Below, one piece after another: positions 1,032 through 38,494 of a DNA stretch of 38,494 bases. This DNA is from Malassezia furfur (taxonomy: Eukaryota). Numbering within the stretch: the stretch's first letter is position 1; each line of letters starts with the position of its first letter. The DNA is taken from NCBI GenBank assembly GCA_052055015.1, contig JBQJIT010000060.1. The stretch is one strand, 5' to 3'. A program made the position numbers and the translations under genes. Under the pieces are notes generated by a model. The model worked only from the letters and a program-made list of their open reading frames with translations. It did no database searches and was not told the origin of the DNA.

Positions 1032-3596
1032 CTACGTTTTGGGCGCGGCTGTCGGCGGCGCGTCGTACGGCTCGCCGCGCGCCTGCCAGAGCGTGCGGCG
1101 CTTTTCGAGGAGCGCCGTGGCCCAAACGCGGATCTGCGGGTTGTGGATCTTGGGGATGGCACCCTGCCAGAACTGTTGCAAGTCACGTATGCCCTGCGCC
1201 TGCTCGTACTCAAACGTCTGCAGGCACAGCTCAAAGCAGTCGAGGTCCTTGACGAGCCGCGCCTCGGGCGTCGCACGCGCCTCGTACTCGTCCCAGAGGG
1301 CACGGATCTGCTGCGCGGCAGGCGTGTCGGCGAGTAGGTCGCGCGTCAGGTACTCGATCGCCGCATGCTCGCGCCGCGTCTTTTCCTCCTTGTCCACCTG
1401 GCACATAGGCGTCAGGTCGCCGACCTGTGCCTCCGCAAGGTCGTGCACCAGCGCCATCATCACGCACTTGCGCACATCGAGCTGCGTGTCATCGACAAGC
1501 ATCGCCAACATTGCCATGCGGTACATGTGGTCCGCAATCGATTCGGGCGCCGGCACACCGTGGTGGTACCATCCCGTGCGTTTCGACAGCTTGAGATTCT
1601 GGAGGTAGTGCATATAGTACAGCATCTTGTCGAGGTGCGCTGCATCCACACCGAGCGCCGCGTCCCAGCCCGTCGCCAACGCGCGCGGCGCACTTTCAGG
1701 GCCGAGCGAGACGCGCGCACTGGCGCTTGGCACAAACGGCACCGGCGGCACGGACGCACCGGCGACCGGCGCGGTCGACGCACGCACAGACGCTGGAACG
1801 CCACCCCCCGTACACATCGTCCGTGTCCGTGCCGACGCGGCACCGCCTGCATTCGACGTCCGCGCCATCGAAGGCGTCGCACTGCCTGGGCTAAAGGTCC
1901 GCTGCACGATCGGCGCCGCGGCCTGCGGCGATGCCCGCGTGGCCTTGCGCAGCGACGGCACCATCATCTTCTCCTTGTACGGTAGGCTCGTTTTCGGCTC
2001 ACGGTCGAGGCCATCAGAATTGTCGCGCGCAGGCCGTGCGATCGATACGGCGCGCGCAGGCTTCCACGGGACGGAACGTGCCTGGCTCCCGCTTGGTGCT
2101 GCGCGGTATGACGACGGATGCGCATACTGGTTGTTGCGGTGCGAGGGCATGTTGGAAGCAAGTACGCCCGCAAGCGCCAACTCCTCGTCGGCGTACCGGT
2201 CATGCGGCACATGTGTGCGCTCGTTATCGGCCCCGCGCACACCCTCGTACTCCTGCTCGATGCGATCGGCGCGGTCGAGGTGCTTGCGTGCCGCCTGCAT
2301 GCTGTGCTCGGTGAGCACCGAGAACGAGAAGCCCTGCGCACCCGTGAGCCGCTGTGACATTTCCGAAGCACGGGGCAGGCGCTCCACTCGGTGGTTCTTG
2401 GCCTTGCGGGGCGTGGGCGGCGGCCGCTCTGTCTCGTGCGCGAGGTCCTCGTCGATGGCGAACACAGGGTTTTCGTCGTTGCCGTCGTAGGACGGGACCA
2501 CGTCGTCGTCGACCGAGCCGGTCTCAGAATCGTAGCGCGTAGGATGCAGCTCCAGCGAGCTCGTTTCCTGCTTGTCGATCGAGTGTTCCGAGCGCGTCTC
2601 GTTCGCAGATGTGCGGTGCGCGGCATGCGCCGCCCGTGCGGCACGGCGCTCCTCGCGCTCTTCGGCATCGCGCTGCTCGAGGTGCCCCGGCAGCGTCCTC
2701 CCAAAGCGTGCAAACGATGCCGATAAACGCCCGACCGACGACGAGAGGTCCACGGCAGGCGGCGGCGCTCGCTTGGTAAACGTCGGCGCTGGCTCGGGGG
2801 CGTCCTCGGCGTCGGCAGGCAGCGCTGACATCTCGGGTTGCGCGGGCGTCGACTCGGACGGTGTTGGTGCCGAAGACGTCGCCGGTACAACGGCATGCGA
2901 CAAGACATACTCCTTTGCACTTGATATGGCGCTCTGCATGGTCTTTTGCGCCTTGTGGATGGCTGACTCGACCTCGCGCTGCACCTGGTCGTACTGCACA
3001 CGCAGCTGATCTAGGGTCGCAGCCTCAACCTTCTTGGTACGTGCGTCGGACGCAGCGAGGGTATCTTCGGTGAGGCGCGTGGGGACGCTGGGGAGGTGCA
3101 GCGACGCCCAAACCTGTTCGAGGTCGTGCAGTGTGTCGAGCGGGCGTGGTTGACCCGACGCAGAAGATAGACGCGGAAGCACAATGCCCAGGGGCGGGAC
3201 GTAGTCGGGCGACTGGATGCGCGCCTGCATATCGTCCTCGCCGATGCACGTATCATTGAGCAGCAGCACGTCCGAGGTGGGAAACGTTGGGTGCGCATGC
3301 AGCGAATACGACGTGGACTGCGTCGAAGGAAGATTCAGCTCACTCGCATACACATCCATCGAGCAGATTTTGCACGACACCACGTCAAGCCCCACCTCAT
3401 GCTCCTGCCTCGTCCAGAGTGGCAGCGCCTGTGGTTAGCCATAGCCAAGCAGGGCACGTACGATGGTGAGCGACGAAGGCGTGTTGAGGCGCACACGCTT
3501 GCTGAACGGCGCCTTGGCTTTTCCGATAACTGTACAACTCACGCGCACATTCAAACAGGGACACGCCCATACGCCGGACGCCGTGTCCGGGTCCAT
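1032..3596 (-). CDS. Cys-motif (CxC...CxxC)/coiled-coil/disordered protein fused to a C-terminal HD-domain 5'-deoxynucleotidase (HDDC2/YGK1/YBR242W family)
   Basis: ATG 3596 (MDPDTASGVWACPCLNV). A 33-nt intron at 3429-3461 (GTACGT...GCTAAC...CAG, in-frame stop inside) joins it to the 787-aa ORF. C-terminal motifs KRTGW, ESIADHMYRMA, MALVHDLAEAQVGDLTP and EARLVKDLD are typical of HDDC2. Confidence 0.8.
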
Positions 3597-4670: not shown

Positions 4671-7600
4671 CTACTTGTAGAGCATCGCGCGGAATTGGTC
4701 CTGGTCTTTGGGCGCCGCAGCCGACGTGTCATCGTTGGAGGCCGACTCGCGCGGCGTGTGTACGCGCGCAAAGCCGAGTGCGCCCCCACGCCCGCCACGT
4801 CCACCACGCCCGCCACGCCCCCGCATCGCGCTCCGCGGCACGATGGGTGTTGAGGCTGCATCCTTTGGCGCCGACGTATGCGCCTCGACGGTGAGCGGAT
4901 GCCCTTGATACTCAACGTGTGCGCCGAGCACTGCACGCCCCGCCGTCTCGGCGTCGACGAGCTCCACGAGACTCGAGGCGCCCGCGTCGCCTTCGTGCCG
5001 TGTCGGCGTCCAGAACACACGCACGACCGAGCGTGGTCCCAGCGCCTTTTCGACTGCCTGCTGGATGAGCGCTTCTTGTGCATCGGCAGGCAAACCACGC
5101 ACGACGATCGAGCGTGCGTGGCGGTCGTCAGCGTTCTCGGCCTTCGGTGCCGAGGTTTTGCGCCCTGGCTCGGCGATCGATACCGCGATGCGGCGGCCGA
5201 GCAGTTCGGTGTCGTTCGTTGCCTGCTGTGCACGCTGGGCTTCAAGCGCGGTGGCGAACGTGACAAACGCAATGCCGCGGCTCTTGCCGTCGGGTCGTGG
5301 GGGGATCCGCACGTCCTGCACAGGTCCATGCGGTGCAAAAAAGGCGCGAATGTCTCCCGCCTGTACGCTGCGCGGCAGACCGGACAGGTACAGCTCACGC
5401 TCGTTCGCATGTGCATCAGAGCGAGCCTTTTTGTGCGCAGGATTCGATAAGTAGACTTGCAGCGCAAACTCGTCCGTCCAGTGCTTGCCGTGCTCGGCGA
5501 GCGCCGCCTGCGCCGAATCGGCGCGCACAAACTGCACGTAACAGAAGCGACGCGACTGGGCAAACGTGCGGCTCGGCCAGCGCACGTCAAAGAGCGCGCC
5601 GTATTTGCCAAATTGTGCACGAATCTGGTCGTCGTCTGTGTCCGGCGCAAAGTTGGTAACGTAAAGCGTGCACTGGTAGCTGGGTGCCAGGTGCACTTCC
5701 ATATCGCGAATGCGTTTCAGGTCGCGCGTCAGCGCCGCTGCGGCCATGTCGCGGTCGGCAAACTCCACAAGTGCCGCCGATGTCGCCGTGCCATCGGGCG
5801 CAGGCGCTTCGACGGCGCGAGGGCCCACGATCTCGACCATCTCGCCGCACTCGCGGAAGAAGCGGCGCAGCTCGACCGCCTCTGCGTCTGCAGGGAGACC
5901 GGCGACCATCACTGACGAAAACTCGCGGTCGCGTGCAGGGAGCGGTGCGTCGGTCCGCCCCTTTTTGGTATGCGTCTCCAGGGCATCGTCCGCCTTGCGT
6001 TTCTGGCTCTCGGACGGCGCCAGAGGGGGGCGCTCGGGAAGCGCGGCAGGCTCGGGGGCGGCATCGACATGCATAGCGTCAGCCACGCTGGGTTCGGTGC
6101 TCGTCTCGGGCACCGCCGCAGGGGCCTCAGTCGCTGCCGGCGCCTCGCTGTGCTGCGCGCTCGCTGCTTGCACCGCCGCCTCGCTGCGGTACTGTGCCTT
6201 GTACCACTGGCGCCACAGACAGTCCGACTCGGCCTTGCGCTTGCTTTCGGCATGCTCAATTTGTGCAATACTTCCCCGGGCATGCTCAAATTGCACCCAT
6301 GCATCGAGGAGGGGCATCTTACTCTCGTCGCCGTGCCGGGCGGTGCCAGCTTTGAACAGCTGCCGCGCGCGTGTATCGTTGTCGTGGCGCGCAAAGTACT
6401 GTGCGGCGCCAAGGTGTGCCTGGACACCGTCCGGCTGCGCCTGTACCGCATTTTCCCACACACCCTCGGCGAGAGGGTAGAGCCCCGTGGCGGCTTCGAC
6501 CCCCGCGGCGGCGCTCAGCGCCCGCGCCGCGCGCTCGATCCAGTCGACCGCATAATGCTCGAGCGTACACGTACGGTCAGGCTCGGTCTTGGCGAGCTGG
6601 CCTACCTCGCTGAGTGCATGTGCCAACAGCTCGTAGATGTGCATGAAGCGGTCAAGGTCGGCGTACAGCACCACGTCCTCTGGTGCAACGTGCTGCGCCG
6701 CGGCGACCTCGAGCGTGGCGTACGCACGCTCGCCGTCGATACGCGCTTGCAAGAAAGGCACAAGTGCCTCGACGCCGCCCGATGTCGGCAGCGTGCGCGA
6801 TGTCAGCACCTCGTCCCATACGGCATCAAACTGCGCCTTGGGCCGCTGCGCGCGTGCGAGCGTGTGGAGGTACAGCGCCCACAGCCGGCCGGATACGGGC
6901 AGGACGCGCGACGCGTTGCGGCACACATCGAGCTGCGCCGCGGCGTCGAGGTGCGCAGGGCTCGTAAGTTGCGCGTAGTCGAGCCACAGCGACTCGGGCG
7001 CCACACACAGCGACCGCGCCGCCACGCGCGCCGCCTGTTTCTCTCGCTCGAGCATTTTCTGGCTCTTGCGTCCCGCCTTGGCCATCCATGCCTTCTCCTC
7101 GGCGCGCGTAGGCGGACGCAATGCGTGCGCCTGCTCCTGGGCATCTTTTCCAAGCGGGTACCATCCAAACCGGTGGAGCGCGCGGCGGTATAGTGCGGCA
7201 CCGAGCTCTTCCTCGGTCGCGAGGTGCGATTTGTCCTTGGCCGTGCGCAGTGTCTTCATCCGGTGCGACTCCCAGTGCAGATATGGCATCCACTGCTCTA
7301 GGGACGTGTGCGGCGCATGAGCACTGGCCTCGTGTCGCTCGCGCTCGCGCCACATGCGCAGCGCATCTGCATACACCTTGTTCGCCGATGCCAGCAGCTC
7401 TTCGTAGGCGTCTGCGGGGAAGTAGGTCGACACCCAGCTCGAAAAGCGCTGGAACGTTTCGTCAAGCTGCGCGTGCGGCACACGCAGGCGTGCAACGTAC
7501 ACCTGGCGCACCAGCTCGCGACGCTCGTCGCTGCGATCAGCGTCGAGCAGGTGTTGTTCCCAGTCGCAGTAAACGCGCCAAATGACCGCCGACTCATGGA

Positions 7601-8195
7601 CATGGTATGCACACCGCGAGTAAAGAGTGCGCAGCGCCGTGCGCACCGAGTCCTCGCCTAGCAGCTCGTCGCGCTCGTCGGCGTCGGTGGGCAGCAGCGG
7701 TGCCAGCGCCTCGATGTCCGCGTAGGCGCCAACCGCGTGCAGCGCTGGTGCATCGCCCACACCTGTCCACGTCTCCAGCAGTGCACACACATCATATGCG
7801 TCGCCATCCACGGTTGTCACCGCGGTCTCGGGCAGGTCGCCCCACGCCGGTGTTGCGACGCGATGGTGGGCCGCGTACAGGCCGAGCCACAAACTTGCGG
7901 CCCGGACGAACAAGCTCATATCCAGCGAGTCCTGCGTGCTCTGGTCGTGTAGGTCGAGCAGCTCACGCAACGCGTCGGCGCCGCCCGCCTCGTCCTTCAG
8001 CACCCGGCGCGTTGCCAGGCTCAGGTACAAGTGCCAGTCGGTGGGACGCAGTGCAATATGCTCTGCCGTCTCTTCATACGCGCGCAGCAGCTCAGTGACG
8101 AGTGGTGCGCGATCCTCGGCTGCAAGGAGCTTGCGCTGCAGCGACCGCGTCCAGCTTTGGTAGCTCCATGGGTCGAGCGTCGGTGCCTGCGCCAT
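4671..8195 (-). CDS. PRP24: U4/U6 snRNP recycling factor Prp24/SART3 (HAT repeats, RRMs, C-terminal LSm-interaction motif)
   Basis: HAT-like helical N-terminal half. RRM motifs TLYVTNF/RRFCYVQF and ELYLSGL/RGIAFVTF. C-terminus KDQDQFRAMLYK matches the (S)NDDFRxM LSm-binding motif. ATG at 8195. Confidence 0.9.
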   Translation of the reverse strand: MAQAPTLDPWSYQSWTRSLQRKLLAAEDRAPLVTELLRAYEETAEHIALRPTDWHLYLSLATRRVLKDEAGGADALRELLDLHDQSTQDSLDMSLFVRAASLWLGLYAAHHRVATPAWGDLPETAVTTVDGDAYDVCALLETWTGVGDAPALHAVGAYADIEALAPLLPTDADERDELLGEDSVRTALRTLYSRCAYHVHESAVIWRVYCDWEQHLLDADRSDERRELVRQVYVARLRVPHAQLDETFQRFSSWVSTYFPADAYEELLASANKVYADALRMWRERERHEASAHAPHTSLEQWMPYLHWESHRMKTLRTAKDKSHLATEEELGAALYRRALHRFGWYPLGKDAQEQAHALRPPTRAEEKAWMAKAGRKSQKMLEREKQAARVAARSLCVAPESLWLDYAQLTSPAHLDAAAQLDVCRNASRVLPVSGRLWALYLHTLARAQRPKAQFDAVWDEVLTSRTLPTSGGVEALVPFLQARIDGERAYATLEVAAAQHVAPEDVVLYADLDRFMHIYELLAHALSEVGQLAKTEPDRTCTLEHYAVDWIERAARALSAAAGVEAATGLYPLAEGVWENAVQAQPDGVQAHLGAAQYFARHDNDTRARQLFKAGTARHGDESKMPLLDAWVQFEHARGSIAQIEHAESKRKAESDCLWRQWYKAQYRSEAAVQAASAQHSEAPAATEAPAAVPETSTEPSVADAMHVDAAPEPAALPERPPLAPSESQKRKADDALETHTKKGRTDAPLPARDREFSSVMVAGLPADAEAVELRRFFRECGEMVEIVGPRAVEAPAPDGTATSAALVEFADRDMAAAALTRDLKRIRDMEVHLAPSYQCTLYVTNFAPDTDDDQIRAQFGKYGALFDVRWPSRTFAQSRRFCYVQFVRADSAQAALAEHGKHWTDEFALQVYLSNPAHKKARSDAHANERELYLSGLPRSVQAGDIRAFFAPHGPVQDVRIPPRPDGKSRGIAFVTFATALEAQRAQQATNDTELLGRRIAVSIAEPGRKTSAPKAENADDRHARSIVVRGLPADAQEALIQQAVEKALGPRSVVRVFWTPTRHEGDAGASSLVELVDAETAGRAVLGAHVEYQGHPLTVEAHTSAPKDAASTPIVPRSAMRGRGGRGGRGGRGGALGFARVHTPRESASNDDTSAAAPKDQDQFRAMLYK

Positions 8196-8213
8196 CACGG
8201 CGATGGTCGCTGA

Positions 8214-9821
8214 CTAAGCCCTATGGACGCGCGCGACGCTCTGCATGGCCAGGCGCCGCGCTTGGGCCAGCGAGATGTGGTCCTGACGGTACGCGAGCAA
8301 CTGTCCATTGTCGCCCGTGACACGCACCTCGCTAGCAGTCGGGGTATCCTCCACGGCATCCGACGCCGCAAATGCATCGTCGTCATCATCCATGTCCTGC
8401 GTCTCACTCTGGCGGTAGCCGCCAGTGTGTAGTCGGTGCAGGTCGCCGGGGCGCTCCGATTGGAAACGCATCCCCGGCTGCCCCTGAAAAGGCGCAAAGT
8501 CGGAAATGATGCGCGGGGCGCTCGGCGCAGGCTTTGGTACGGTCTCGCTGCGCGCGTCGACACGGTACGGTAGCGATCCGCTGTAGTTGGCGCGTCGTGC
8601 GTCGAGGAATTTTTGGCTGAGCCGCGAACCGACCACCTTGCGGATGTGTGGGCGCGCGGTAGGCACATCGGGCGCCTGGCTCCAGATGCGGACATTGTGT
8701 GTGGATTCTGTGTGGGTTTCGTCAACGTACCTTCGCTCTCGCGGTAAATGCTCTCGACAATGAGCTGCTTGGTGCTCTCATTGCGCAGCAGCAGCTTCTC
8801 GTGCAGCTCGTGCGTGACTTGGTCCATAAGTGAAGACGATGGATCGTCGCCCATGCTCAAGCTTAGCGACCGCATGCGGTCCAGCACCGCATCACCTACC
8901 TCGCGGTGCAGCCGATCCAAGTCCATCACCTCGCCTGCCGCGGCAATCACAACATGGCTAAGCAGCGAAGCGGTGGTGAGTGGAACGAGCAAGCCGCCGG
9001 TGATGGTGACCAGCCCCTGGTAAAAGTCGACTGCATGCTGGTAACCGGACAAAGCCGGCTCACATGCAACAACAAACAACGGGATCCCACGCGCCGACAT
9101 TGAGCGGGCCAGCAAAATGGGGTCCTCATTGTCCGGCGAGCCGGACGGAAACCCATCGCCGTACTCGCCGATGCCATGCGGGGGTGCGTCAGTGACCAAG
9201 ATGGCCATTTTTGCCGCATCCGGTCGCCAATCCTGCGTGAGTAGAAGTACACGCACAAGATCACACGCGGCCTTGAGCGCTGCCGTCGCGGCTTCAGGTC
9301 CGTCGCCGCCGCCGGCCGCAAACAGCGAATTGAGGTTCTCCTTCATTTCGTACACGCTGGTGGTGAAACCGACTGGATGAGTCGTGGGGCGTACAGTTTT
9401 TCACAATGTACACATGGTCCTGCGGTGGGTGGTCACGGTACGCAATGAGCCCGACGCGCAGTGCGCCGTCTTGGGCAAGCAGCTCCGACTGCACGATCTG
9501 GTCACAGATCGTCTCGATGTTGTGCGTCGCAGACTGGGTAAGCATGCAGGCGGCGCACGTTGATACTGTGTAAGCAGGCGCACATACTAGGACCCCATGG
9601 ATCCGGTCGCGTCGATGATCTGGTGAGCGCTGCACGTACAAAGACCAAATCGAGCATACGGGTGGGCGTCGGCTCCGCGAATACGTTGCCGCTCGCTGTC
9701 TGCCCGCCCTGCATCCAGTCAGGCACGACTGACGGGTCCGCAGCTGCACCAAACATGCTGACCGTGAGCGGCGCACGTACCTGTAGGCGCCCCCGCGTGG
9801 GGCACCGGCGTGGTTCGCCAT
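8214..9821 (-). CDS. Stand-alone von Willebrand factor A domain protein (related to the vWA module of VwkA alpha-kinases), 8 exons
   Basis: Introns 9758-9780 (23), 9620-9639 (20), 9566-9587 (22), 9534-9558 (25), 9373-9394 (22), 9233-9256 (24) and 8708-8730 (23). Splicing gives LDLVFIIDATGSMGSYINSATHNI...RVGLIAYRDHPPQD...GGGDGPEA...LVTDAPPHG, a canonical vWA/MIDAS sequence. The first exon is less certain (alternative ATG at 9756). Confidence 0.85.
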
Positions 9822-9890
9822 GGTCTGGGAAGCGGTAGCACGGAATTAGTCATCCCCGGATGGCGTCCCCAGACGTGTGGAGGATCCACG

Positions 9891-12304
9891 ATGGCGACGG
9901 GAGGAGCGGACAAGAAATCCGCGCCGGCGCTGCCGGCGTCGAATGAGTAAGTCGGCGCGCTGATGCAGCATCCATGCGACGTGGGAATTTCTCGAGGGCG
10001 GCATCGAGGTGATGGTATGCATGCGCGGCGACTCACACAGATGGCGCGCCTCACCGAGGGCATGTCGTATGAACGCTACATGCAGCTCTACACTGCCGCC
10101 TACAACTACTGCATTAGCAGTGGCATGGGAGGTGCGAGTGGCATCGCTGCTGGTGCACACCTGGTGGGCGGTGAGCTGTACTCGCGCATCGCACACTACT
10201 TCCAACAGCATCTCCGTGGCACCTTGACGCAGCTCGAGTCGCTCTCGGGCGAGGCGCTGCTGCGCTACTATGCCGCGGAGTGGGAGCGGTACACGAACGG
10301 GTCCAACTTTGTGCATCGCCTGCTTATCTACCTCAACCGCCACTGGGTGAAGCATGAGCGCGAAGAGGGTCGTACGGACGTGTATACCATTTATACGGTA
10401 CGTGGCTAAACTGACCCAGCTTGCATTGATCCAGTGGAAGCGGTTCGTGTTTGCGCCGCTCCAGACGCACCGCCAGCTCACGAATGCTGTGTTGGATCAG
10501 ATCCGCATTCAGCGCGATGGTGGCGTGATTCAGTCGACCCTGCTTAAGACGGTGCTCGATAGTTTTGTGTCGCTCGGCATTGACGACACCGACGCCACGC
10601 GCCTCAATCTGGACGTGTACCGCACCGAGTTCCAACAGGCGTTTTTGGAGACGACCATGGAATACTACAAGGCCGAGAGCGCCACATTCGTCGCGCAGAA
10701 CTCCGTCACTGACTACATGCGCAAGGCCGAAGCACGGCTCATGGAGGAAGACGACCGCGTGGAGCTCTACCTGCAGCCATCGACACGTATTCCACTTGGC
10801 GATGTGTGCCGCGAGCAGCTGGTGACGAGTCACAGCGCACTTCTCTGGGGCCAGTTCAAGACGCTGCTCGAGAACGAGATGACAGCGGATCTGAGCCGAA
10901 TGTATGCGTTGCTGGTGCAAATCCCCAACGGCCTCGACCCGTTGCGGGAGCAATTTGAGGCGCACGTCAAGGCCGAGGGGCTCGACTCTGTGGCGCGCAC
11001 CGTCGAGGAGGCGGCGGAGCAGGTGGACCCGGCGCGCTACGTCCAGTCGCTGTTGCGCGTGTACGACCACAACATGCAGACAATCGAGACGTCATTCCAG
11101 TCGGAGGCTGGCATGATTGCGGCGCTCGATAAGGCATGCCGCGTGTTTATTAACCAGAACCAGGCAACGGGCAAGTCGGCGAGCAAGAGTCCCGAGCTGC
11201 TCGCCAAGTACGTCGACGGCCTGCTCAAGAAGAGCAACAAAGGTGCGGAAGAGGCTTCGCTCGAAACATCGCTGGATCAGGCGATGGTGGTGTTCAAGTA
11301 CATCGAAGACCGCGATCTCTTCCAAAAATTCTACTCCAAGTTCCTCGCGCGGCGCCTGGTGACGTTCGCCTCAGCGTCGTCGGACGCAGAAGAGGGCATG
11401 ATCTCCAAGCTGAAGGAGGTATGCGGCTTTGAGTACACGCACAAGCTCCAGCGCATGTTTACCGAAGTGGGCCTATGCCGCGAGCTGAATGAACGCTTCC
11501 GCGAGGCGGAGGCAAACCGCGGGTCGAGCGACGACATCGACTTTTACTCGCTGGTGCTTGCCAACGGCATCTGGCCGCTACAGGCGCCGTCTACCGACTT
11601 TAGTGTTCCTACCGAGCTCCAGGGGCTCTACGAGCGTTTCAAGGAGTTTTACGGTGCGCAGCACTCGCGCCGCGTTCTCACCTGGCTGTGGCACCTCTCG
11701 TCCAACGACGTGCACGCCAACTACTTGCCACGCAAGCACATCTTCCAAACGTCTACATACCAATGCGCTGTCCTTTTGCTCTTCAACACGCACAGCGTCC
11801 TGACGTTCGACGAGATTGCTGCAGCGACGCGGCTCGAGACGGCGACTCTCAAGGCAGCGCTGTTGCCGCTCGTCAAGAGTAAGGTGCTCCACGAGCTCGA
11901 CGACTCCTACTCGCTCAATATGGGTGCGTATTTGTGGCTAACCCAGACTTTAAGTCGAAAAAGGTGCGGGTCAACCTCCAAATTCCGGTGCGTGCCGAGC
12001 AAAAAGCCGAGTCCACCGAGGTGATGAAGACGGTGGAGGAGGATCGCAAGATGCTGCTCCAGGCGACCATTGTGCGGTATGTGCGCATCCTGACTCAGCA
12101 TCATGAAAGCGCGCAAGACGCTCAAGCACAACCTGCTCCTCCCCGAGGTCATCACGCAGGTCCAGTCGCGCTTCCAGCCCAAGGTGCCTGATATCAAGAA
12201 GGCGATTGACGCCCTAATCGAGCGCGAGTTCCTGCAGCGCGTGGAGGGAGAGAAGGATGTGTATGTGTGTACATGCTTACACCAGCTATGCATACGTGGC
12301 CTAG
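9891..12304 (+). CDS. CUL1: Cullin-1 (Cdc53), SCF ubiquitin ligase scaffold, 7 exons
   Basis: Introns 9947-9968, 10015-10040, 10398-10419, 11924-11946, 12077-12098 and 12261-12285 (22-26 nt). Motifs [29 protein letters not shown], neddylation site IVRIMKARK and C-terminal YAYVA*. Confidence 0.95.
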
Positions 12305-12305
12305 G

Positions 12306-13382
12306 CTATGGCCCACAGTATGCGACTATCATGCGCCGTGTCGCGAGGGGGCCATGCTGCAGTAGATAGGTAGCACTGTGCGAGCCAGGAAGGTGCACGA
12401 CGCGTTGTCGTATTACGGATTGCACGAGTAGGCCTAGCAACATGACCAGCATGCCGGCGCTCGGGTGCATGGGGAGCACCGTGCCTAGCGCTACTCCAGC
12501 GCTCATCCCGCCGATCCACGTGCGAATCAACCATTCGGTGTTCCACTCGCTTAGCACATCTGCGACGGCAACCAGGTGCGGCCGGTGCGTTGCGTCGTGG
12601 GCAGACGGGATCCACCGGGCAAGCTCAATGCCAAACGTCTGCTGTTTCCGCCGGTCAAGCGGGAGTCGCGAATCCCATACCAAAAGAAACCCGAGGAGCA
12701 GCATGGTGCTCACATTCGAGAACAGCAGCGCAACCGAGGGCAGGTTCCACGAGTAAGGGTGCATGTAAGGCGTGCGCGCACGATTGCACCAGATACGGTG
12801 AATGACAAGCCCCATGACCACGACGGCAGCGTGGTACAGCACCGACTCTACTGCCGTCGCGACCGTAACACGCACAACACCGTGCAATGAGGGAGGGAGA
12901 TGCGGGAAGTGCGCCACGATGCTCGACCACGGGCGAGGCTCATCCTCTGCAAGGCGAGGTACCTTTTCTCCAGCCACCACATAGGGATGTACGCCTGCGT
13001 TAGCCAGCCACCTACACAGACTAAACCAGCGAAGGTCTGGGTAAGTACACAACGTACAGCTCTCCACGAGGATGTAGGCAAGAAAATGACGGGCGTGCGT
13101 CCAGTAACGCCACGACATCGGCTGTGGACTGGGTATAGGGCTGGTGTGGCCACGGTTGTAAAGCAAATGACGGTATACGCGTGGCTTGGCCAACATCTGC
13201 GTAAGTCGGCCACATACGAGGTCGATGAACAGGATGGTCGGGCCAAACTCGAGATATGGATCAGCAATACGACCACAGCCGCCCTCCTCCTTCGACGCAC
13301 ATCGTGTCAGCGCGACATGTCCCGAGCCAAACGTCGTAAGCAACGCCGGCAGGGGACGTGCGCAGTGCACACACACCGGCAT
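12306..13382 (-). CDS. ARV1: ARV1 ER sterol/lipid homeostasis protein
   Basis: N-terminal Zn motif MPVCVHC...TRC...[11 protein letters not shown]...[17 protein letters not shown], followed by TM segments. Two in-frame 21-nt introns at 13197-13217 and 13037-13057. Confidence 0.9.
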
Positions 13383-13627: not shown

Positions 13628-14253
13628 TTACTCCGCCTTGGCCTGGATCGCCGACACGGGCGTCTCGGCCTCCTTAACCGCTGCCTTCTCAGTCTGCGGG
13701 CCGTTGTTCTCCGTCAGGCTGCTGAAAAGACCCGGCGCAGGCTTGAAAGGACGCTTCAGCTCGCCCGTCGCCGGCACGCCCCAAATCCAGATCTTAGCCA
13801 TGTTCGACTCGAGCGCGTTTTTGAACGGAATCAAGCTCTGGATAACAAGACTGAGTCAGCACAAAGCCACATACGGGTTGGTGTAGCCAAAGTAGAAGTG
13901 CATGAGCGCGACGATGCCCATGCCCATCAGGATGCCACGCACGCTCTTGCTGACCTCGGCGAGGTCGTAGTCGCGGTTCGTCGTGGTGACAAGCTCACCC
14001 GGCTCCTGCGACTGACATGAGCAGGTAAACGTACCATGGGGTTTTTAGCATTCACGTACTTGAGCACAGTCAAGTCGTTCTTCTTCTTGATCTGGATGCT
14101 GCAGAAGTAGTACACAGCCAGACACGCGAGTTGCGCGGCGAGGTAGCCGATACGGGCGTACGTCACGTAGTCCGGGTTTTCTTCGAACGGGATGCGCTTG
14201 GCCAGCTGCATCACGCCGAACATTACGGCCATGTTCGTCACTGCGGCGTTCAT
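13628..14253 (-). CDS. PHO88: Pho88/Snd3 ER membrane protein
   Basis: MNAAVTN...KKNDLTVLKYV, TTNRDYD, MHFYFGYTNPLVIQS and LKRPFK after removing introns 14012-14034 (23) and 13851-13874 (24). Confidence 0.9.
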
Positions 14254-14383: not shown

Positions 14384-15670
14384 ATGTCGTTGCAGGTACA
14401 CCAGCTCTCGTACAGCCCTCTAACGGCGCACGCGTTCAATGCCGACCGTAGCAGGGTCGCCGTGTCGCCTAACACCAACGAAATCAACATCTATGCGCGC
14501 TCTGGTGACGGATGGGTGCTCGAGCATACCCTCGCCGAGCACGACAAGCTCGTCACCGGGATCGACTGGGCGCCGAACACGAACCGTATCGTGAGCTGCT
14601 CGCAGGACCGAAACGCCTACGTGTGGTCTCTGAGCGACGATCAGCGCACCTGGAAGCCGACACTCGTGCTCCTCCGCCTGAACCGCAGTGCGACGGCCGT
14701 GCGCTGGAGCCCGAACGAGGACAAGTTTGCGGTTGCGAGCAGTGCACGTACCATTTCAGTGTGCTCCTTCGAGGAAGACAACGACTGGTGGGTCGCCAAG
14801 CACATCAAGCGCCCGCTGCGCTCGACGGTCAACTCGATCGATTGGCACCCCAACAACGTGCTGCTCGCCGCAGGCTGCGCTGATTTCCGTGCGCGTGTGT
14901 TTAGTGCGTACATCAAGGGCGTGGACAGCAAGCCTCCGCCGAGCGTGTGGGGTGAGCGCCTGCCGTTTGGCACGGTGTGCGGCGAGTTCGCTACGTCGTC
15001 GAGCGGCTGGGTCCATGGCGTAGCCTTCAGTCCGAGCGGTGATGCCCTTGCGTTTGTGGGCCACGATGCATCGCTGACGATTGTGTATCCGTCGGCGCCG
15101 GACGTACCGCCGCACGCCGTACACACGATCTGTCTGCCGAGTCTGCCTTACGTCACGTTGATGTTCCTGACTGAGACGTCGCTTGTCGCCGCGGGACACG
15201 ACTGCCAGCCGATTGTGTTTGAAGGCGACTGGCAGAACGGTTGGAGGCTCACACGCTCGCTCGACACGGCCGGCGCTGCGGCAAGCAAGCCGAAGCCGCC
15301 GCCGCCGCCGCCGAAGGCTGCGGGGCTGTCGGGCGGCGGCTCCGGCGGGGTGGGCCGTTTGAACAATGAGGCTTTTGCGCGTTTCCGCGCGGCCGACTCG
15401 CGCGGCACCTCGTCGACGCCTACAGCCAATGGGGAGGCGTCGCCTGCCTCGCTGGGTGCGGTTGCCGGTGCGAGCATCGCAGACGATGGCGAGCTGCACA
15501 CTACGTGCCAAAACACCATCACCTGTGTACGCAGCTACAGCGGAGCGCCTGGCAACGTGCAGGCGGTCAGCACCAGCGGCATGGACGGCCGTTTGTGTGT
15601 GTTTGACGCAACCAAGGGCACCACCGCTGTGGCGCCGATCTTGCGGGGCGTTTCGAGTCTACAGAAGTAG
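14384..15670 (+). CDS. ARC40: Arp2/3 complex subunit ARPC1/Arc40 (WD40)
   Basis: HDKLVTGIDWAP, SCSQDRNAYVW, WKPTLVLLRLNR, DWWVAKHIK, WHPNNVLLAAG and WGERLPFG. Intronless from ATG 14384. Confidence 0.95.
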   Translation: MSLQVHQLSYSPLTAHAFNADRSRVAVSPNTNEINIYARSGDGWVLEHTLAEHDKLVTGIDWAPNTNRIVSCSQDRNAYVWSLSDDQRTWKPTLVLLRLNRSATAVRWSPNEDKFAVASSARTISVCSFEEDNDWWVAKHIKRPLRSTVNSIDWHPNNVLLAAGCADFRARVFSAYIKGVDSKPPPSVWGERLPFGTVCGEFATSSSGWVHGVAFSPSGDALAFVGHDASLTIVYPSAPDVPPHAVHTICLPSLPYVTLMFLTETSLVAAGHDCQPIVFEGDWQNGWRLTRSLDTAGAAASKPKPPPPPPKAAGLSGGGSGGVGRLNNEAFARFRAADSRGTSSTPTANGEASPASLGAVAGASIADDGELHTTCQNTITCVRSYSGAPGNVQAVSTSGMDGRLCVFDATKGTTAVAPILRGVSSLQK

Positions 15671-24371: not shown

Positions 24372-24475
24372 TGCCCACTGGCTGGATCGAACAACCGACC
24401 TCGTCATGTCGCTAGGGACGTACCGCGATTCGCGGGAGGTACGAGTGACGCGCTCTACCACTGAGCTAAGCGGGC
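24372..24475 (-). tRNA. tRNA-Thr(CGT) with 32-nt intron (24408-24439)
   Basis: GCCCGCT/AGTGGGC acceptor stem, D arm GCTCAGTGGTAGAGC, anticodon arm CGTCA-CTCGTA|A-TGACG, T arm GGTTGTTCGATCCAGCC, 72-nt mature length and a downstream T-run terminator. Confidence 0.95.
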
Positions 24476-24564: not shown

Positions 24565-24667
24565 TGCCCACTGGCTGGATCGAACAACCGACCTCGTCAT
24601 GTCGCTAAGGACGTTCCGCAATCGCGGGAGGTACGAGTGACGCGCTCTACCACTGAGCTAAGCGGGC
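24565..24667 (-). tRNA. tRNA-Thr(CGT) with 31-nt intron (24601-24631)
   Basis: Exons identical to copy 1; T-run terminator. Confidence 0.95.
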
Positions 24668-24738: not shown

Positions 24739-24841
24739 TGCCCACTGGCTGGATCGAACAACCGACCTCGTCATGACCCAACGGCCAACCGCGAATCGCA
24801 GGAGGTACTAGTGACGCGCTCTACCACTGAGCTAAGCGGGC
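24739..24841 (-). tRNA. tRNA-Thr(AGT) with 31-nt intron (24775-24805)
   Basis: Same exons as copies 1 and 2 except anticodon AGT. Confidence 0.95.
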
Positions 24842-33000: not shown

Positions 33001-35942
33001 CCTTCTCCGGCTTTGTAAACGAGAAGGCAGGGGTGCTTGGCTTGCCCTCCTTTTTGTCTTCGGGCTTTGCAAACGAGAAGGCAGGAGTGCTTGACTTGCC
33101 CTCCTCCTTCTTGTCTTCGGGCTTTGCAAACGAAAAGGCAGGGGTGCTTGGCTTATCATCCTCCTTCTCCGGCTTGGCAAACGAAAAGCTGGGAGGGTCG
33201 CCAATCTCCTTCTTCCCGTCAGGCTTTGCGAATGAAAACGGAGACTTCTTTGCCTCATCATTCCCTTGCGATGCCGTTTCGTTCGGTTTGGCAAAGGAAA
33301 ATGGTGTCGTAGGCTTAGCATCGTTACTCTCTTTTTGCTCGGCCTCAGGTTTGGCAAACGAAAATGCAGATGCATCCTTGGGCTTCTCCTGATCAGGCTT
33401 CGTCATCGGCGGGGACGGAGCCCCGTGCTGCTGAGTTTCCTTGGCGGGACTCGCGTCTTGTGCCGATGCAGTACCCTTGGAGGCTGAGCTGCTGGCATCA
33501 TCGCTTGTAGGCGTTGTGTTCTCTTTCTGTTGGCCAAACGAAAAGGTGGGTGTTTCTGCCGGTTTGTTGTTTTCACCCTGCTTGGTCTCTGGCTTGGCAA
33601 AGGAGAACGCCGACGCACTTCCACCAGTGCTTTCCGGCTTGGTAAACGAGAACGGTGACGATTTCGACGGTTCAGTCTGAGTCTCGTCCTTCTTCTGGCC
33701 GAACGAAAAGCCTGCAGAAGGTGCATTTGCCGAAGCGGCAAAGCCAAATGTAGCCGATTGCTTCTCCTTGTTCGCATCTGCCTCCTTCTTTGCCGTGGAG
33801 CCCATCAGATCACCCATCGAGCCAAATGAGAAGGCACCCTGACTTGCATTATCCAGTGGCTCAGCATCCATGCTCGATTCTTCCCCAGCCGTCTCCTTCT
33901 TCGGGGCGGGTTTGACACCCTCAAAAGCTGGCTTTCCTTTGTCTAGCGACTCGCCCGATCCAAACACCGAGGCGCCGTTGGTGTTGCTCACTGCACCAAA
34001 CCCAGTAGGTTTGCCTGCCATGGCACTAAATGCCGAGCCAGAAGCGGGCGCGGCTGCCGTTTTTCCGAACGCCGGCGCCGAGCCAAACCCGGAGGGCTGT
34101 CCAAATGCCGTGCTGGATGCTGTGCTTCCAAATGCCGATGGCACAGCTGCCTGTGACCCAAACGCCGAAGACTGCCCAAACGCGGGTTTTCCAAACGCCG
34201 AAGGCGTTGAAGTGCTTCCAAATGCCGGCGTACTCGATCCACTCCCAAACGCTGACGGCGTAGCTGTGCTGCCAAACGCGTTTGCTGGCTTCAATCCGCT
34301 GTTTGCGCTCCCAAACGCTGATGCACCACCGCCAAAGGCGCTGAAGCCGCCCGTCGAGGATGTCGAAGTCGATGCGTTCCCAAATGCCGAGGCACCAAAG
34401 CCCGAGGTTGAGCCAAACGCCGGCTTGGACGCTCCAAATGCGGATGGGGCACCAAACGCTGGCGTGCTGCTGGGCTGAGATACGCTCCCAAAGGCCGGCT
34501 TGGATGACGATGCTGGGGCGCCAAACGCCGGTGTAGCCGGTGCAGCCTGGGGCACAGCCGTTGAAGGCTGACTGGCAGGGGTGGAGTCGGAGGACGAAGG
34601 ACCTGTGCCGGGGGTCACCATGCCAGGGTATGGTTCCGAGGTATCTGTATTGATCACATGGTAGGCGAGCAAGACGCCATCATTGGTGTATACGAGGAGA
34701 ATGGGCATGGCTGGCAGCTTGGTCGAGGTGTCCTCACCCTTTGCCGCCGCGTTGGGGTCATCAACGGGATCGCTGGCCGTCAGATCAAATTCGAGGCCGA
34801 TCGGTGCCGTGTCTGAGGCATCGTCCGTCGACGAAAATGGCAAGGCGGGACGCGAGGTGTCCTCCAGTTCTAGCGCATTCCATGCGCTTGGCCCAGAGGC
34901 GTCCGCCTTGCAATCCAGCACGCCGACATCAGTGCTGGGTGTATTGGCCATAAACACGAGGTGCTTTTCCCGGTCCCACGCACGCAATGCGGCGATGTAG
35001 CGCCGGCCTGCTCGTCCGACATCGCCAAAAGGTGGTGCCACGTCGAGAGGAAATGCAGCATAGGTACAAGACTGCGACTTTGGGTCGCGCAGCACGACAA
35101 AAACATCGTATTCATGCACCATCTCCTCGGACACCGTGTTGTAGGTGACGATGAAGACGTGGTTTTCCAGCCAACGCACGTCCTCCACGAGAAGAGGGCG
35201 ATCTGCATCTGGCGGTGGTGCAAGTCGCGCTTTGACCTCACCCTCCGTGGTGCATTGGACAAGTTCGCCAGTGCGAAGGCCCAAGACGAGCTGCTTGCCT
35301 TTGGTCGACCACGCCGCGGAGGTCACGCCCGACTCGGGCAGGGACGCGACCCAGCTACCCGACCGCATGTCCAATAGGTGACACGTTCCCCCGGACGCAG
35401 CCGCAGGGGCCGCAGCATAGAGGGCCACGCACAACTCACTGCGGTCACCAGGGTTCGGAATGACGCCAACCAGATGCGCGCCGGCTGTAGGCGGTGCGGC
35501 GCGCCCGACAGGTCCATTCCCAGAGGAATCATACATAAGGATACTGCCGTCCGTCAGTCCACAGACGAGGCGTGTCTCCTGGTCGGCAAACGCGAGGAAC
35601 TGCACAGCGGCATATTCATGCGTCGACACCGACTTGAGGGGCTGAGCACGCGGCGTCGCACTGCGCTCTGCCCCTAGAAACGTTTTTCGCAGCGCTTGAA
35701 AAGCGTGTATGTCGAATCCTGAGTAAGCTGGGTCGTTGACGCACCGTCACGCGTAGTCACCGCCGCGATGCCAAGGTGGTTTGCGACGCTGAGCGCCAGG
35801 AACGGACGCGTCGCGTCGAGATCGAGCGGCTCAGAAAGACGCACATTGACGTCTTTCGCCAGCTGCCGTAGGACGAGATACTGGATGAGCGCGCTTCACG
35901 TACCGGCGCGGCGGCTTCGCCGGCCTCCGCACGAGACGCCAT
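30008..35942 (-). CDS. NUP159: FG nucleoporin Nup159/Nup146/NUP214 (beta-propeller, FG repeats, FSF repeats, coiled coil)
   Basis: ATG 35942, introns 35881-35903 (23) and 35719-35744 (26), then the long ORF. Propeller motif WSTKGKQLVLG, many SAFG/PAFG repeats, and a C-terminal coiled coil with HLGPEHMENQQRLR. Confidence 0.88.
32370..33370 (-). repeat. Degenerate coding tandem repeat (about 57-60 nt unit) encoding xxFSFAK(P/S)EDKKE
   Basis: Repeated (g/c)gcttggcaaa(c/g)gagaaggcagg...cttcttgtc units within NUP159. Confidence 0.85.
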
Positions 35943-37103: not shown

Positions 37104-38494
37104 CTACGGAGGATGCGCCGAGCTCTGCGCATCTGGATTGAGATGCAAGTGAGGCACGCTCGTGCCTGGGCTCATGGCGCCTGATAATGGGGATGGTGCC
37201 GTGTTTTTTCGCATCGGGAACGAGCCCGGAGACGAGAGGTTGCGCATCCCCAGCGGCGGCGAGTATGCTGGGGCGCTGCGGACCTGCGGTGCACCACTGG
37301 GCGGTGGCGTGCCAGTTGGCGCGGTTGTCGAGGTTGCGGGCGGCCATGCAGGGCGCGCGAGCGGAGTGTTTGGGTGCGCATAGGGTGCGTCGCTACCCAT
37401 GGACGACGCCGTGGGGGCACTAAGCGGTCCAGGCGCCGTGCCAGGCAGGGCACTGGGCGGCACTGCGGGACCGGGCACATGAGATGGTGCCGCCATGGAC
37501 GATGCGCCAGGCAGCGCACCCGCGAAGGACAGCGGCGCTGGCTGCGTCGGCATCGCTGGCACGGCAGCGGGCAGAGGTGCATCGTGGGCATCGACGTCGG
37601 CCTTCACCGGCGTAGGTGCGGCATCCAGTGAAGTGGGCGGCTGCGGCAATGATGCTTCTGCCTGAGCGGCACAGGCGCTGCACACAAAGTCGACCTTTTC
37701 CCAATCGCGCGGCGCGCGTCCCGCGTTACGGTCGCGACGGTCCCAACACTCGGTATGCTGCCAGACACCGCACCGCTCGCATGCGACAACACTGTCGTCG
37801 CCTGGCGGATTGTGTGCATCCATGCCACACACCTCGCAGCGCAGGTGCCAGTCGGTATCGGATGGCGGCTCCATGGCGGGCTTTTCGGTATCTTGGGTGC
37901 CTCCGGCCATGGGCGTGTGGCTGCGCGAGCGCTCTTGAAAGCGCCGCTCCCGTGCCAGGATACGTTCCTCGCGGTCGCGGAGACGGTCCTCGCGGCTGCG
38001 CCTCGCGAGGCGCTCGGCCTCTTCGCGCGCGAGGCGCTCGCGCTCGGCAGCAAGGGCGGCGGCGGCGGCCTCGCGTGCGGCGAGCGCTTCGTTCAGCTCG
38101 CGCTCGCGCTCCTCACGCTCGCTCTCCTTCATGGCGATGCGCGAGCTGCGCTTGCGGTGCTGCATTGCCTCCTCGAGCGCCTGGCGACGCTGCTCGGCGA
38201 GCATGACCTCTTCGACGCGCGGATAGACTTCTTTGGCCAGGTAGTTGTACAAGCTGCGCTCGTCGGGATGCTTCGACGTAGCGAAGCGCTCGAGGAAGCG
38301 CTGCCAGTCCTCGAGTGAGATGCACAGTGTCTCGAACTCGACGAACGAGCCGTCCTCCTGCTCGTCCTCAGACGGGGGATTTGACAGCTCCGAGCCGCTG
38401 TCAAACACATCCTCAGGGCGCAATATCTCAGGGGGAACCTCTTCCCACTCCGAGTCGCGGCTCAGGCGCGACGAGCGGCGACCGCCGCGGCGCG
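37104..38494 (-). CDS. Partial PHD-finger chromatin protein (WHIM/ISWI-partner-like), 5' end outside window
   Basis: Frame open from the right edge (RRGGRRSSRLSRDSEWEEVPPE...). Contains FETLCISLEDWQRF...HPDERSLY, RKRSSRIA, a coiled coil and a PHD (CEVC...CERCGVWQHTEC...FVCSAC). Confidence 0.82.
   Translation of the reverse strand, partial: RRGGRRSSRLSRDSEWEEVPPEILRPEDVFDSGSELSNPPSEDEQEDGSFVEFETLCISLEDWQRFLERFATSKHPDERSLYNYLAKEVYPRVEEVMLAEQRRQALEEAMQHRKRSSRIAMKESEREERERELNEALAAREAAAAALAAERERLAREEAERLARRSREDRLRDREERILARERRFQERSRSHTPMAGGTQDTEKPAMEPPSDTDWHLRCEVCGMDAHNPPGDDSVVACERCGVWQHTECWDRRDRNAGRAPRDWEKVDFVCSACAAQAEASLPQPPTSLDAAPTPVKADVDAHDAPLPAAVPAMPTQPAPLSFAGALPGASSMAAPSHVPGPAVPPSALPGTAPGPLSAPTASSMGSDAPYAHPNTPLARPAWPPATSTTAPTGTPPPSGAPQVRSAPAYSPPLGMRNLSSPGSFPMRKNTAPSPLSGAMSPGTSVPHLHLNPDAQSSAHPP

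Follow-up and report, generated by a model that had tools for sequence, protein, structure and literature searches.

A 20-nt GC-rich intron predicted just before the metal-site motif of a Malassezia vWA-domain gene

Short introns in Malassezia and in other lineages

Very short introns are described in a review as belonging to the genus Malassezia (PMC7426719). In M. sympodialis, 5350 introns with a mean of 30 bp were annotated, 5271 of them (99%) with RNA-seq support (PMC5389616, Table 2), and mapping in this species permitted introns from 10 bp as well as micro-exons (PMC5389616). The 2150 introns of M. restricta have a 30-bp median (PMC9241646, Table 1), and the annotators of this species set the minimum intron length at 20, then at 15 (PMC6473144). 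Our literature search found no paper giving the smallest Malassezia intron, and papers may exist beyond the scope of that search.

Tiny introns are also found elsewhere. Genome-wide medians of about 22–27 bp are reported for Paramecium and other ciliates, myxozoans and dicyemids (PMC13644364; PMC5014332), and for some myxozoans the median is 22 bp (PMC13644364); these medians are similar, in lineages different from Malassezia. In Stentor coeruleus, introns measure 15–16 nt and branch at an A in position 10 or 11 (PMC9505925); in the Bigelowiella natans nucleomorph they measure 18–21 bp (PMC6009652). The 30-bp physical limit set by a database study (PMC4675715) is already superseded by such shorter introns. 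Among the exceptions below 30 bp given by a 2026 survey, ciliates, Microsporidia and Dicyemida are named and Malassezia is not (PMC13644364), and a 2021 fungal intron study is, in its treatment of short introns, silent on those of Malassezia (PMC8476143). Because both leave them aside, the Malassezia trait is under-noticed rather than unknown.

A vWA-domain gene with seven candidate introns

The window, that is, the whole stretch of 38,494 nucleotides analysed here, carries on its minus strand a gene for a von Willebrand factor A (vWA) domain protein. Its largest exon was translated and searched against 5.8 billion proteins, giving 467 matches at E ≤ 0.001 among 7494 candidates. At the top stood M. 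brasiliensis with 97% identity, an ENA protein with 100% and, at 93% and 96%, two M. furfur proteins; other Malassezia and Ustilaginomycotina came next, at 64–80%. Judged by these best protein relatives, the window is nuclear DNA of a furfur-group Malassezia that has M. furfur and M. brasiliensis as near relatives. The family is widespread in fungi (1025 matches at E ≤ 0.001 in a profile-free scan of 1.84 billion representatives). A sequence search of the PDB with the orthologue P0007 gave 0 matches, so that no relative of solved structure is detectable by sequence.

The gene model was aligned to ten relatives and draws on tblastn of three orthologues (P0007, P0035 and P0017) on the window, whose matching blocks break and resume at GT and AG dinucleotides. 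With P0017, a block begins at 9619, exactly at the start of exon 3. Joining the eight exons by their coordinates yields a coding sequence of 1449 nt with the stop codon, or 482 residues. The seven introns measure, in gene order, 23, 20, 22, 25, 22, 24 and 23 nt; each of them has CAG at its 3' end (Table 1). Three of them, together with two exons of 32 and 7 nt, lie within the 106 nt of 9534-9639 (minus strand); in our view the 20-nt intron is less unusual than the 7-nt exon (9559-9565). Intron 6 (9233-9256) is translated as eight extra residues in the M. brasiliensis model and in the query protein P0001.

Table 1. Proposed exon–intron structure of the vWA-domain gene, listed in the direction of transcription.
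Feature	Position	Strand	Length	Description
vWA-domain gene	8214..9821	-		8 exons, 7 introns; alignment to 10 relatives and tblastn of 3 orthologues
Exon 1	9781..9821	-	41 nt	ATG at 9821; same start in M. brasiliensis model P0002
Intron 1	9758..9780	-	23 nt	GTACGT donor, CTCAC with A at nt 16, CAG acceptor
Exon 2	9640..9757	-	118 nt	LDLVF codons at its end; tblastn places P0007 residues 1-40 on 9756-9637
Intron 2	9620..9639	-	20 nt	phase 0; GTACGT donor, CTCAC with A at nt 16, CAG acceptor
Exon 3	9588..9619	-	32 nt	micro-exon; IIDATGSMGS and two bases of the next codon; DxTGS (MIDAS-like) motif
Intron 3	9566..9587	-	22 nt	GTATGT donor, CTTAC, CAG acceptor
Exon 4	9559..9565	-	7 nt	micro-exon; same seven bases implied by P0269
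Intron 4	9534..9558	-	25 nt	GTGCGC donor, CTTAC, CAG acceptor
Exon 5	9395..9533	-	139 nt	tblastn places P0007 residues 53-98 on 9533-9396
Intron 5	9373..9394	-	22 nt	phase 1
Exon 6	9257..9372	-	116 nt	tblastn and alignment
Intron 6	9233..9256	-	24 nt	in frame, no stop; 8-residue insertion relative to every orthologue (tblastn gap of 8)
Exon 7	8731..9232	-	502 nt	main part of the vWA domain
Intron 7	8708..8730	-	23 nt	no clear YTNAY near the 3' end
Exon 8	8214..8707	-	494 nt	includes the stop codon at 8216-8214

Read directly in the window, the minus strand from 9639 to 9620 is GTACGTGCAGCGCTCACCAG, 20 nt running from GT to AG. The upstream exon ends at 9640 with the LDLVF codons and the downstream one starts at 9619 with those of IIDATGSMGS. 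The element is laid out as a 6-nt GTACGT donor, a 6-nt spacer, the 5-nt CTCAC motif and the CAG acceptor; the A of CTCAC is nt 16, with 4 nt left to the intron end, and G+C amounts to 65%. If the 20 nt are kept, the frame shifts and a stop is reached at 9504-9502 (open reading frame 9502..9849). A preliminary description of this DNA had reported the interruption between LDLVF and IIDATGSM, the frameshift upon retention and a putative branch A at nt 16, 4 nt from the 3' splice site. It was right in every detail of sequence, exon ends, branch A position and frame. Its further claim, that removal restores the first beta-strand of the vWA domain and the DxTGS motif, is well supported by the orthologue alignment, by an enumeration of splice combinations and by two other Malassezia genomes (see below).

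The element is one of eight window matches to the pattern GTACGT-N5-12-CTNAY-N0-4-CAG, for which 0.04 matches were expected; none of 100 shuffled sequences reached eight. It shows terminal GT and AG, the consensus donor of the genome, a branch-point motif and, on removal, a frame that matches the orthologues, as a U2-type GT-AG intron does. By comparison of sequences, 9639..9620 is thus very probably a spliceosomal intron of this type, in a vWA-domain gene conserved in Malassezia, and the preliminary description would stand on this point as well.

The canonical metal-site motif of vWA domains is DxSxS, located after strand beta-1. In the window the motif is DxTGS, with T replacing the first S, located where it would be expected, at positions 1-10 of the VWA profile, and it is MIDAS-like by sequence. 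On the orthologue P0007, the Pfam VWA profile (PF00092) scores 37.7 bits for a cut-off of 23.8, and its position 1 falls on the D of LDLVF, which places the predicted intron 2 inside strand beta-1, just before the DxTGS motif. The exon-7 fragment of the window alone scores 17.5 bits, under the 23.8 cut-off, a value for the fragment and not for the joined protein.

Splice alternatives and other genomes

The 62 GT..AG pairs of 8-130 nt present within 9700-9480 were combined one, two or three at a time. An open frame from RMLDLVF to SATHNIETICDQ was kept by 42 combinations. The motif was restored by only two of these, both of which use 9639-9620, and only the combination of 20, 22 and 25 nt matches the orthologues across all 13 residues between LDLVF and SAT. 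These residues are gap-free in six of the ten aligned relatives (P0007, P0017, P0020, P0021, P0035 and P0069, which come from M. vespertilionis, M. cuniculi, Violaceomyces, Pseudozyma flocculosa, Ustilago maydis and Gelatoporia). Of the other four relatives, two M. furfur models have none of the 13 residues, P0010 is two residues short, and the P0009 sequence is garbled at this place.

Among the 42 open combinations, the main rival is the removal of a single 106-nt intron, 9639-9534, in which the 32-nt and 7-nt stretches would be intronic and the protein would have no DxTGS motif. The frame stays open after this removal, and the annotated models of M. brasiliensis (P0002) and M. furfur (P0004 and P0005) were built with it; such a splice could exist as a minor isoform. 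However, the 39 nt that it skips code for exactly the 13 residues present in six of the ten relatives, and the M. vespertilionis and M. cuniculi models keep them. P0005, for its part, loses the VWA profile match: none was found in this model at E ≤ 0.001. Moreover, introns and exons this small are often missed by gene callers, as the minimum intron length of 15-20 chosen for M. restricta (PMC6473144) illustrates. We consider it very improbable that the 106-nt splice is the principal one.

For three introns in place of one, other Malassezia genomes were informative. The preliminary description had proposed to compare intron lengths in related species, and the same length was recovered in two of them, as deduced from mis-annotated or unspliced protein translations and not from DNA reads. 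A genomic open reading frame of another Malassezia assembly (P0268) aligns without gaps, over 174 codons, to the unspliced frame of the window from the ATG. Because a gapless alignment in a single frame admits no indel, introns 1-4 and the exons between them appear to have the same lengths in that genome. The two sequences have many differences, yet the eight codons across intron 2 (LYVQRSPD) are identical; those across introns 3 and 4 are not. In M. psittaci, the model P0027 runs on through the orthologous interruption, with LDLVF, VRASLI and RSSMRQDLW where the window has VRAALT and RSSTRPDPW, in the same register. This implies an interruption that would also be 20 nt long in M. psittaci, with a YTNAT at nt 13-17.

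By back-translation, both out-of-frame peptides, from P0268 and from P0027, agree with IIDATGSMGS being encoded in the true frame; of 200,000 random 11-mers, none did. The differences in the stretch skipped by the 106-nt splice thus fit the same residues in two other genomes, which speaks against that splice. The same length in two genomes, taken with the back-translation, shows what looks like purifying selection on the 32-nt exon, and argues against an assembly indel or a pseudogene. A frame-breaking insert of 20 nt in a conserved motif does, viewed alone, resemble a sequencing or assembly error, or the decay of a frameshifted pseudogene. But length and register are identical in the independent frame P0268 and in the M. 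psittaci model, the insert has all three splice signals common to the other candidate introns, and GT-AG splicing cleanly removes all seven interruptions of the gene, so that error or decay is even harder to credit than the 106-nt splice. That the 20 nt stay in the mRNA and are compensated by translational bypassing, programmed frameshifting or a non-spliceosomal excision is a logical possibility with nothing specific in its favour, and the least plausible of all given the canonical donor, branch and acceptor motifs of the element and the six more tiny GT-AG introns of the same gene.

Further away, the same 7-nt exon, bordered by CTNACNCAG and a GT donor, can be deduced from P0269, a genomic open reading frame of a Malassezia that is more distantly related. 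Eight extra residues follow ...ICD(Q/H) in exon 5 of P0269 and P0009, which suggests an additional in-frame intron of 24 nt that is absent from the window. A metagenome scan for orthologous DNA returned two distant loci only, L001 and L002, the latter from a remote relative. L001, from a distant fungal relative (metagenome, 47% GC), has the beta-1 and motif region in one uninterrupted exon (358-513). Because of this locus, we regard introns 2-4 as not common to all fungi, and the predicted 20-nt intron as not ancient and universal. A protein search with the read-through frame of exon 2 gave no candidate.

Local intron population and proposed mode of splicing

Introns of similar kind were looked for in the window by a scan for GTRNGY...YTNAY...YAG elements of 15-90 nt bridging open frames of at least 40 codons on each side. 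It gave 70 frame-required records against 29 on the reversed sequence, and 25 against 3 for lengths of 30 nt or less. The scan did not pick up the 20-nt intron itself, since the exon that follows has no more than 32 nt. Gene strands were set by Pfam on 30 long open reading frames, 18 of which had a family at E ≤ 1e-5. A curated set of 24 candidates was then defined as those of the 33 rows of at most 40 nt that lie on a supported gene strand, plus two vWA introns found by homology. Two elements antisense to supported genes, 9538-9577(+) and 14630-14649(-), were dropped; the latter, a second 20-nt candidate, is antisense to a Pfam-supported WD40 gene. Also left out were, as ambiguous cases, 9947-9968(+), 37584-37615(+), 7449-7483(-) and 2302-2341(-), one duplicate, and, as alternative ends, 10398-10434, 14006-14034, 9758-9776 and 9620-9659. 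Outside the vWA gene, candidates rest on signals and frame logic, except for one CK2-beta intron, at which two Pfam matches abut at profile position 89.

Lengths of the 24 candidates are 20, 22 (five), 23 (six), 24 (two), 25 (two), 26 (four), 28, 30, 32 and 33 nt, that is, a range of 20-33 nt with a median of 23.5 and a mode of 22-23 nt, in a sample that is small and selected. All have a YTNAY motif, CTCAC in six cases; 23 end in CAG and 10 start with a GTACGT donor. Pooled, they are 59% G+C (62% for the window). The branch A lies exactly 5 nt from the end in half of the set (12/24). Among the 23 other candidates, 22 have a longer distance from the branch A to the end than the 4 nt of the 20-nt intron, whose branch position, nt 16, is shared with intron 1 of the vWA gene. 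The common 22-nt form consists of a donor of 6 nt, a spacer of 7, YTNAY (5) and NCAG (4). In the 20-nt intron, the spacer is 6 nt and the tail after the motif 3 nt, each one nucleotide shorter. It is therefore one base short in each half, but of the same kind as the others. Of the 24 candidates it has the smallest length, about 2 nt below the mode, within the short tail of the ordinary local distribution.

Several other elements were observed in the window. The neighbouring cullin gene, on the plus strand, has candidate introns of 22, 23 and 22 nt (10398-10419, 11924-11946 and 12077-12098), with CTGAC or CTAAC 5 nt from the end, and a NUP159-like gene has a 23-nt candidate (35881-35903, minus strand) right after its short first exon. 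Only 4 of the 24 lengths are divisible by three, which may be an artefact, as the scan selects against in-frame introns. An in-frame element of 21 nt, GTACGT...CTTAC CCAG, is present inside the long Arv1 open reading frame (13037-13057, minus strand); its removal would swap eight residues for one, and a further tiny intron may thus be present here, concealed by a length divisible by three. Rfam gave three tandem tRNA matches on the minus strand (24372-24475, 24565-24667 and 24739-24841; 50 bits), where ARAGORN reported none. They are probably intron-containing, because each match is about 103 nt long.

With published Malassezia introns, the 20-nt intron shares the genus and the GT-AG kind. The species-wide figures for M. 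sympodialis and M. restricta are longer than those of the window candidates, whose median is that of a small, selected sample. Stentor introns are likewise GT-AG, with a fixed branch A a few nucleotides from the 3' end (position 10 of 15), and a conventional spliceosome with a very tight lariat is assumed for them (PMC9505925). They are however 4-5 nt shorter, near-fixed in length and 75.6% A+U, whereas the Malassezia candidates are GC-rich, variable in length and carry an explicit YTNAY. The Bigelowiella nucleomorph resembles the present gene in its class of about 20 nt, its canonical splice sites and its high intron density per gene (PMC6009652). Its introns differ in being AU-rich, with no discernible branch adenosine, for which a 'caliper' was proposed (PMC6009652), whereas the Malassezia intron is GC-rich with a clear branch motif. 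The traits of a caliper type (AU-richness, near-fixed length, a weak or absent branch consensus) were found neither in the 20-nt intron nor in the 24 candidates. The preliminary description had placed the intron near the physical lower limit for spliceosomal introns. Comparison bears out the intron, but not the limit: this reading is overstated, because Stentor (15-16 nt) and nucleomorph (18-21 nt) introns go lower, and the usual local length is 22-23 nt. The known minimum intron size is left unmoved.

We propose that the intron is removed by ordinary two-step splicing, with recognition across the intron through three explicit signals packed end to end. Donor and branch sites are paired with by snRNPs. 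A16, if it serves as the branch point, would attack the donor and form a lariat whose loop has 16 nt and whose tail has 4; ligation at CAG would then join the LDLVF codons to those of IIDATGSMGS. The signals, and the need for removal, are visible in the gene; from these we infer splicing, its efficiency and the use of A16. Introns 2-4 (20, 22 and 25 nt) would be removed sequentially, because the 32 and 7 nt of exon that lie between them leave no room for simultaneous complexes.

Several public models of this gene look wrong (P0002, P0004, P0005, P0009, P0010, P0011, P0027 and P0029, from M. brasiliensis, M. furfur (two), M. caprae, Malassezia sp. CBS 17886, M. equina, M. psittaci and M. yamatoensis), their faults being skipped micro-exons, intron read-through or late starts. 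P0002 (1642 aa) is fused with the downstream RRM/HAT splicing-factor gene (4674-8213, minus strand). As in other cases of missed coding micro-exons, several public models leave out the 32-nt and 7-nt exons, which code for an invariant motif; the difference is that the flanking introns are here only 20-25 nt. Since tiny introns are normal for Malassezia and shorter ones are known elsewhere, the value of the 20-nt intron lies mainly in the correction of the gene model: in the public proteins of this gene from M. furfur and M. brasiliensis, the metal-site motif is missing or a neighbouring gene is fused on, models from other Malassezia are garbled at this spot, and introns of 20-25 nt and exons of 7-32 nt evidently still defeat gene callers. 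A GC-rich 20-nt intron with readable signals, in a yeast that can be grown and transformed, is also a handy substrate for the minimum donor-branch and branch-acceptor distances.

It is possible, rather than probable, that the M. furfur lineage uses a near-modular intron built of a 6-nt donor, a spacer of 6-8 nt, YTNAY and N-CAG. Such an intron, most often 22-23 nt long, would be shorter than the averages published for Malassezia, and its GC-richness would set it apart from all other tiny-intron systems known. If so, the spliceosome of this lineage would cope with a 16-nt loop and a 4-nt tail, as well as with three introns set apart by exons of 32 and 7 nt within 106 nt, a packing that would force an ordered, intron-by-intron removal. 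A culturable, transformable yeast would then be a model for the minimal requirements of canonical splicing.
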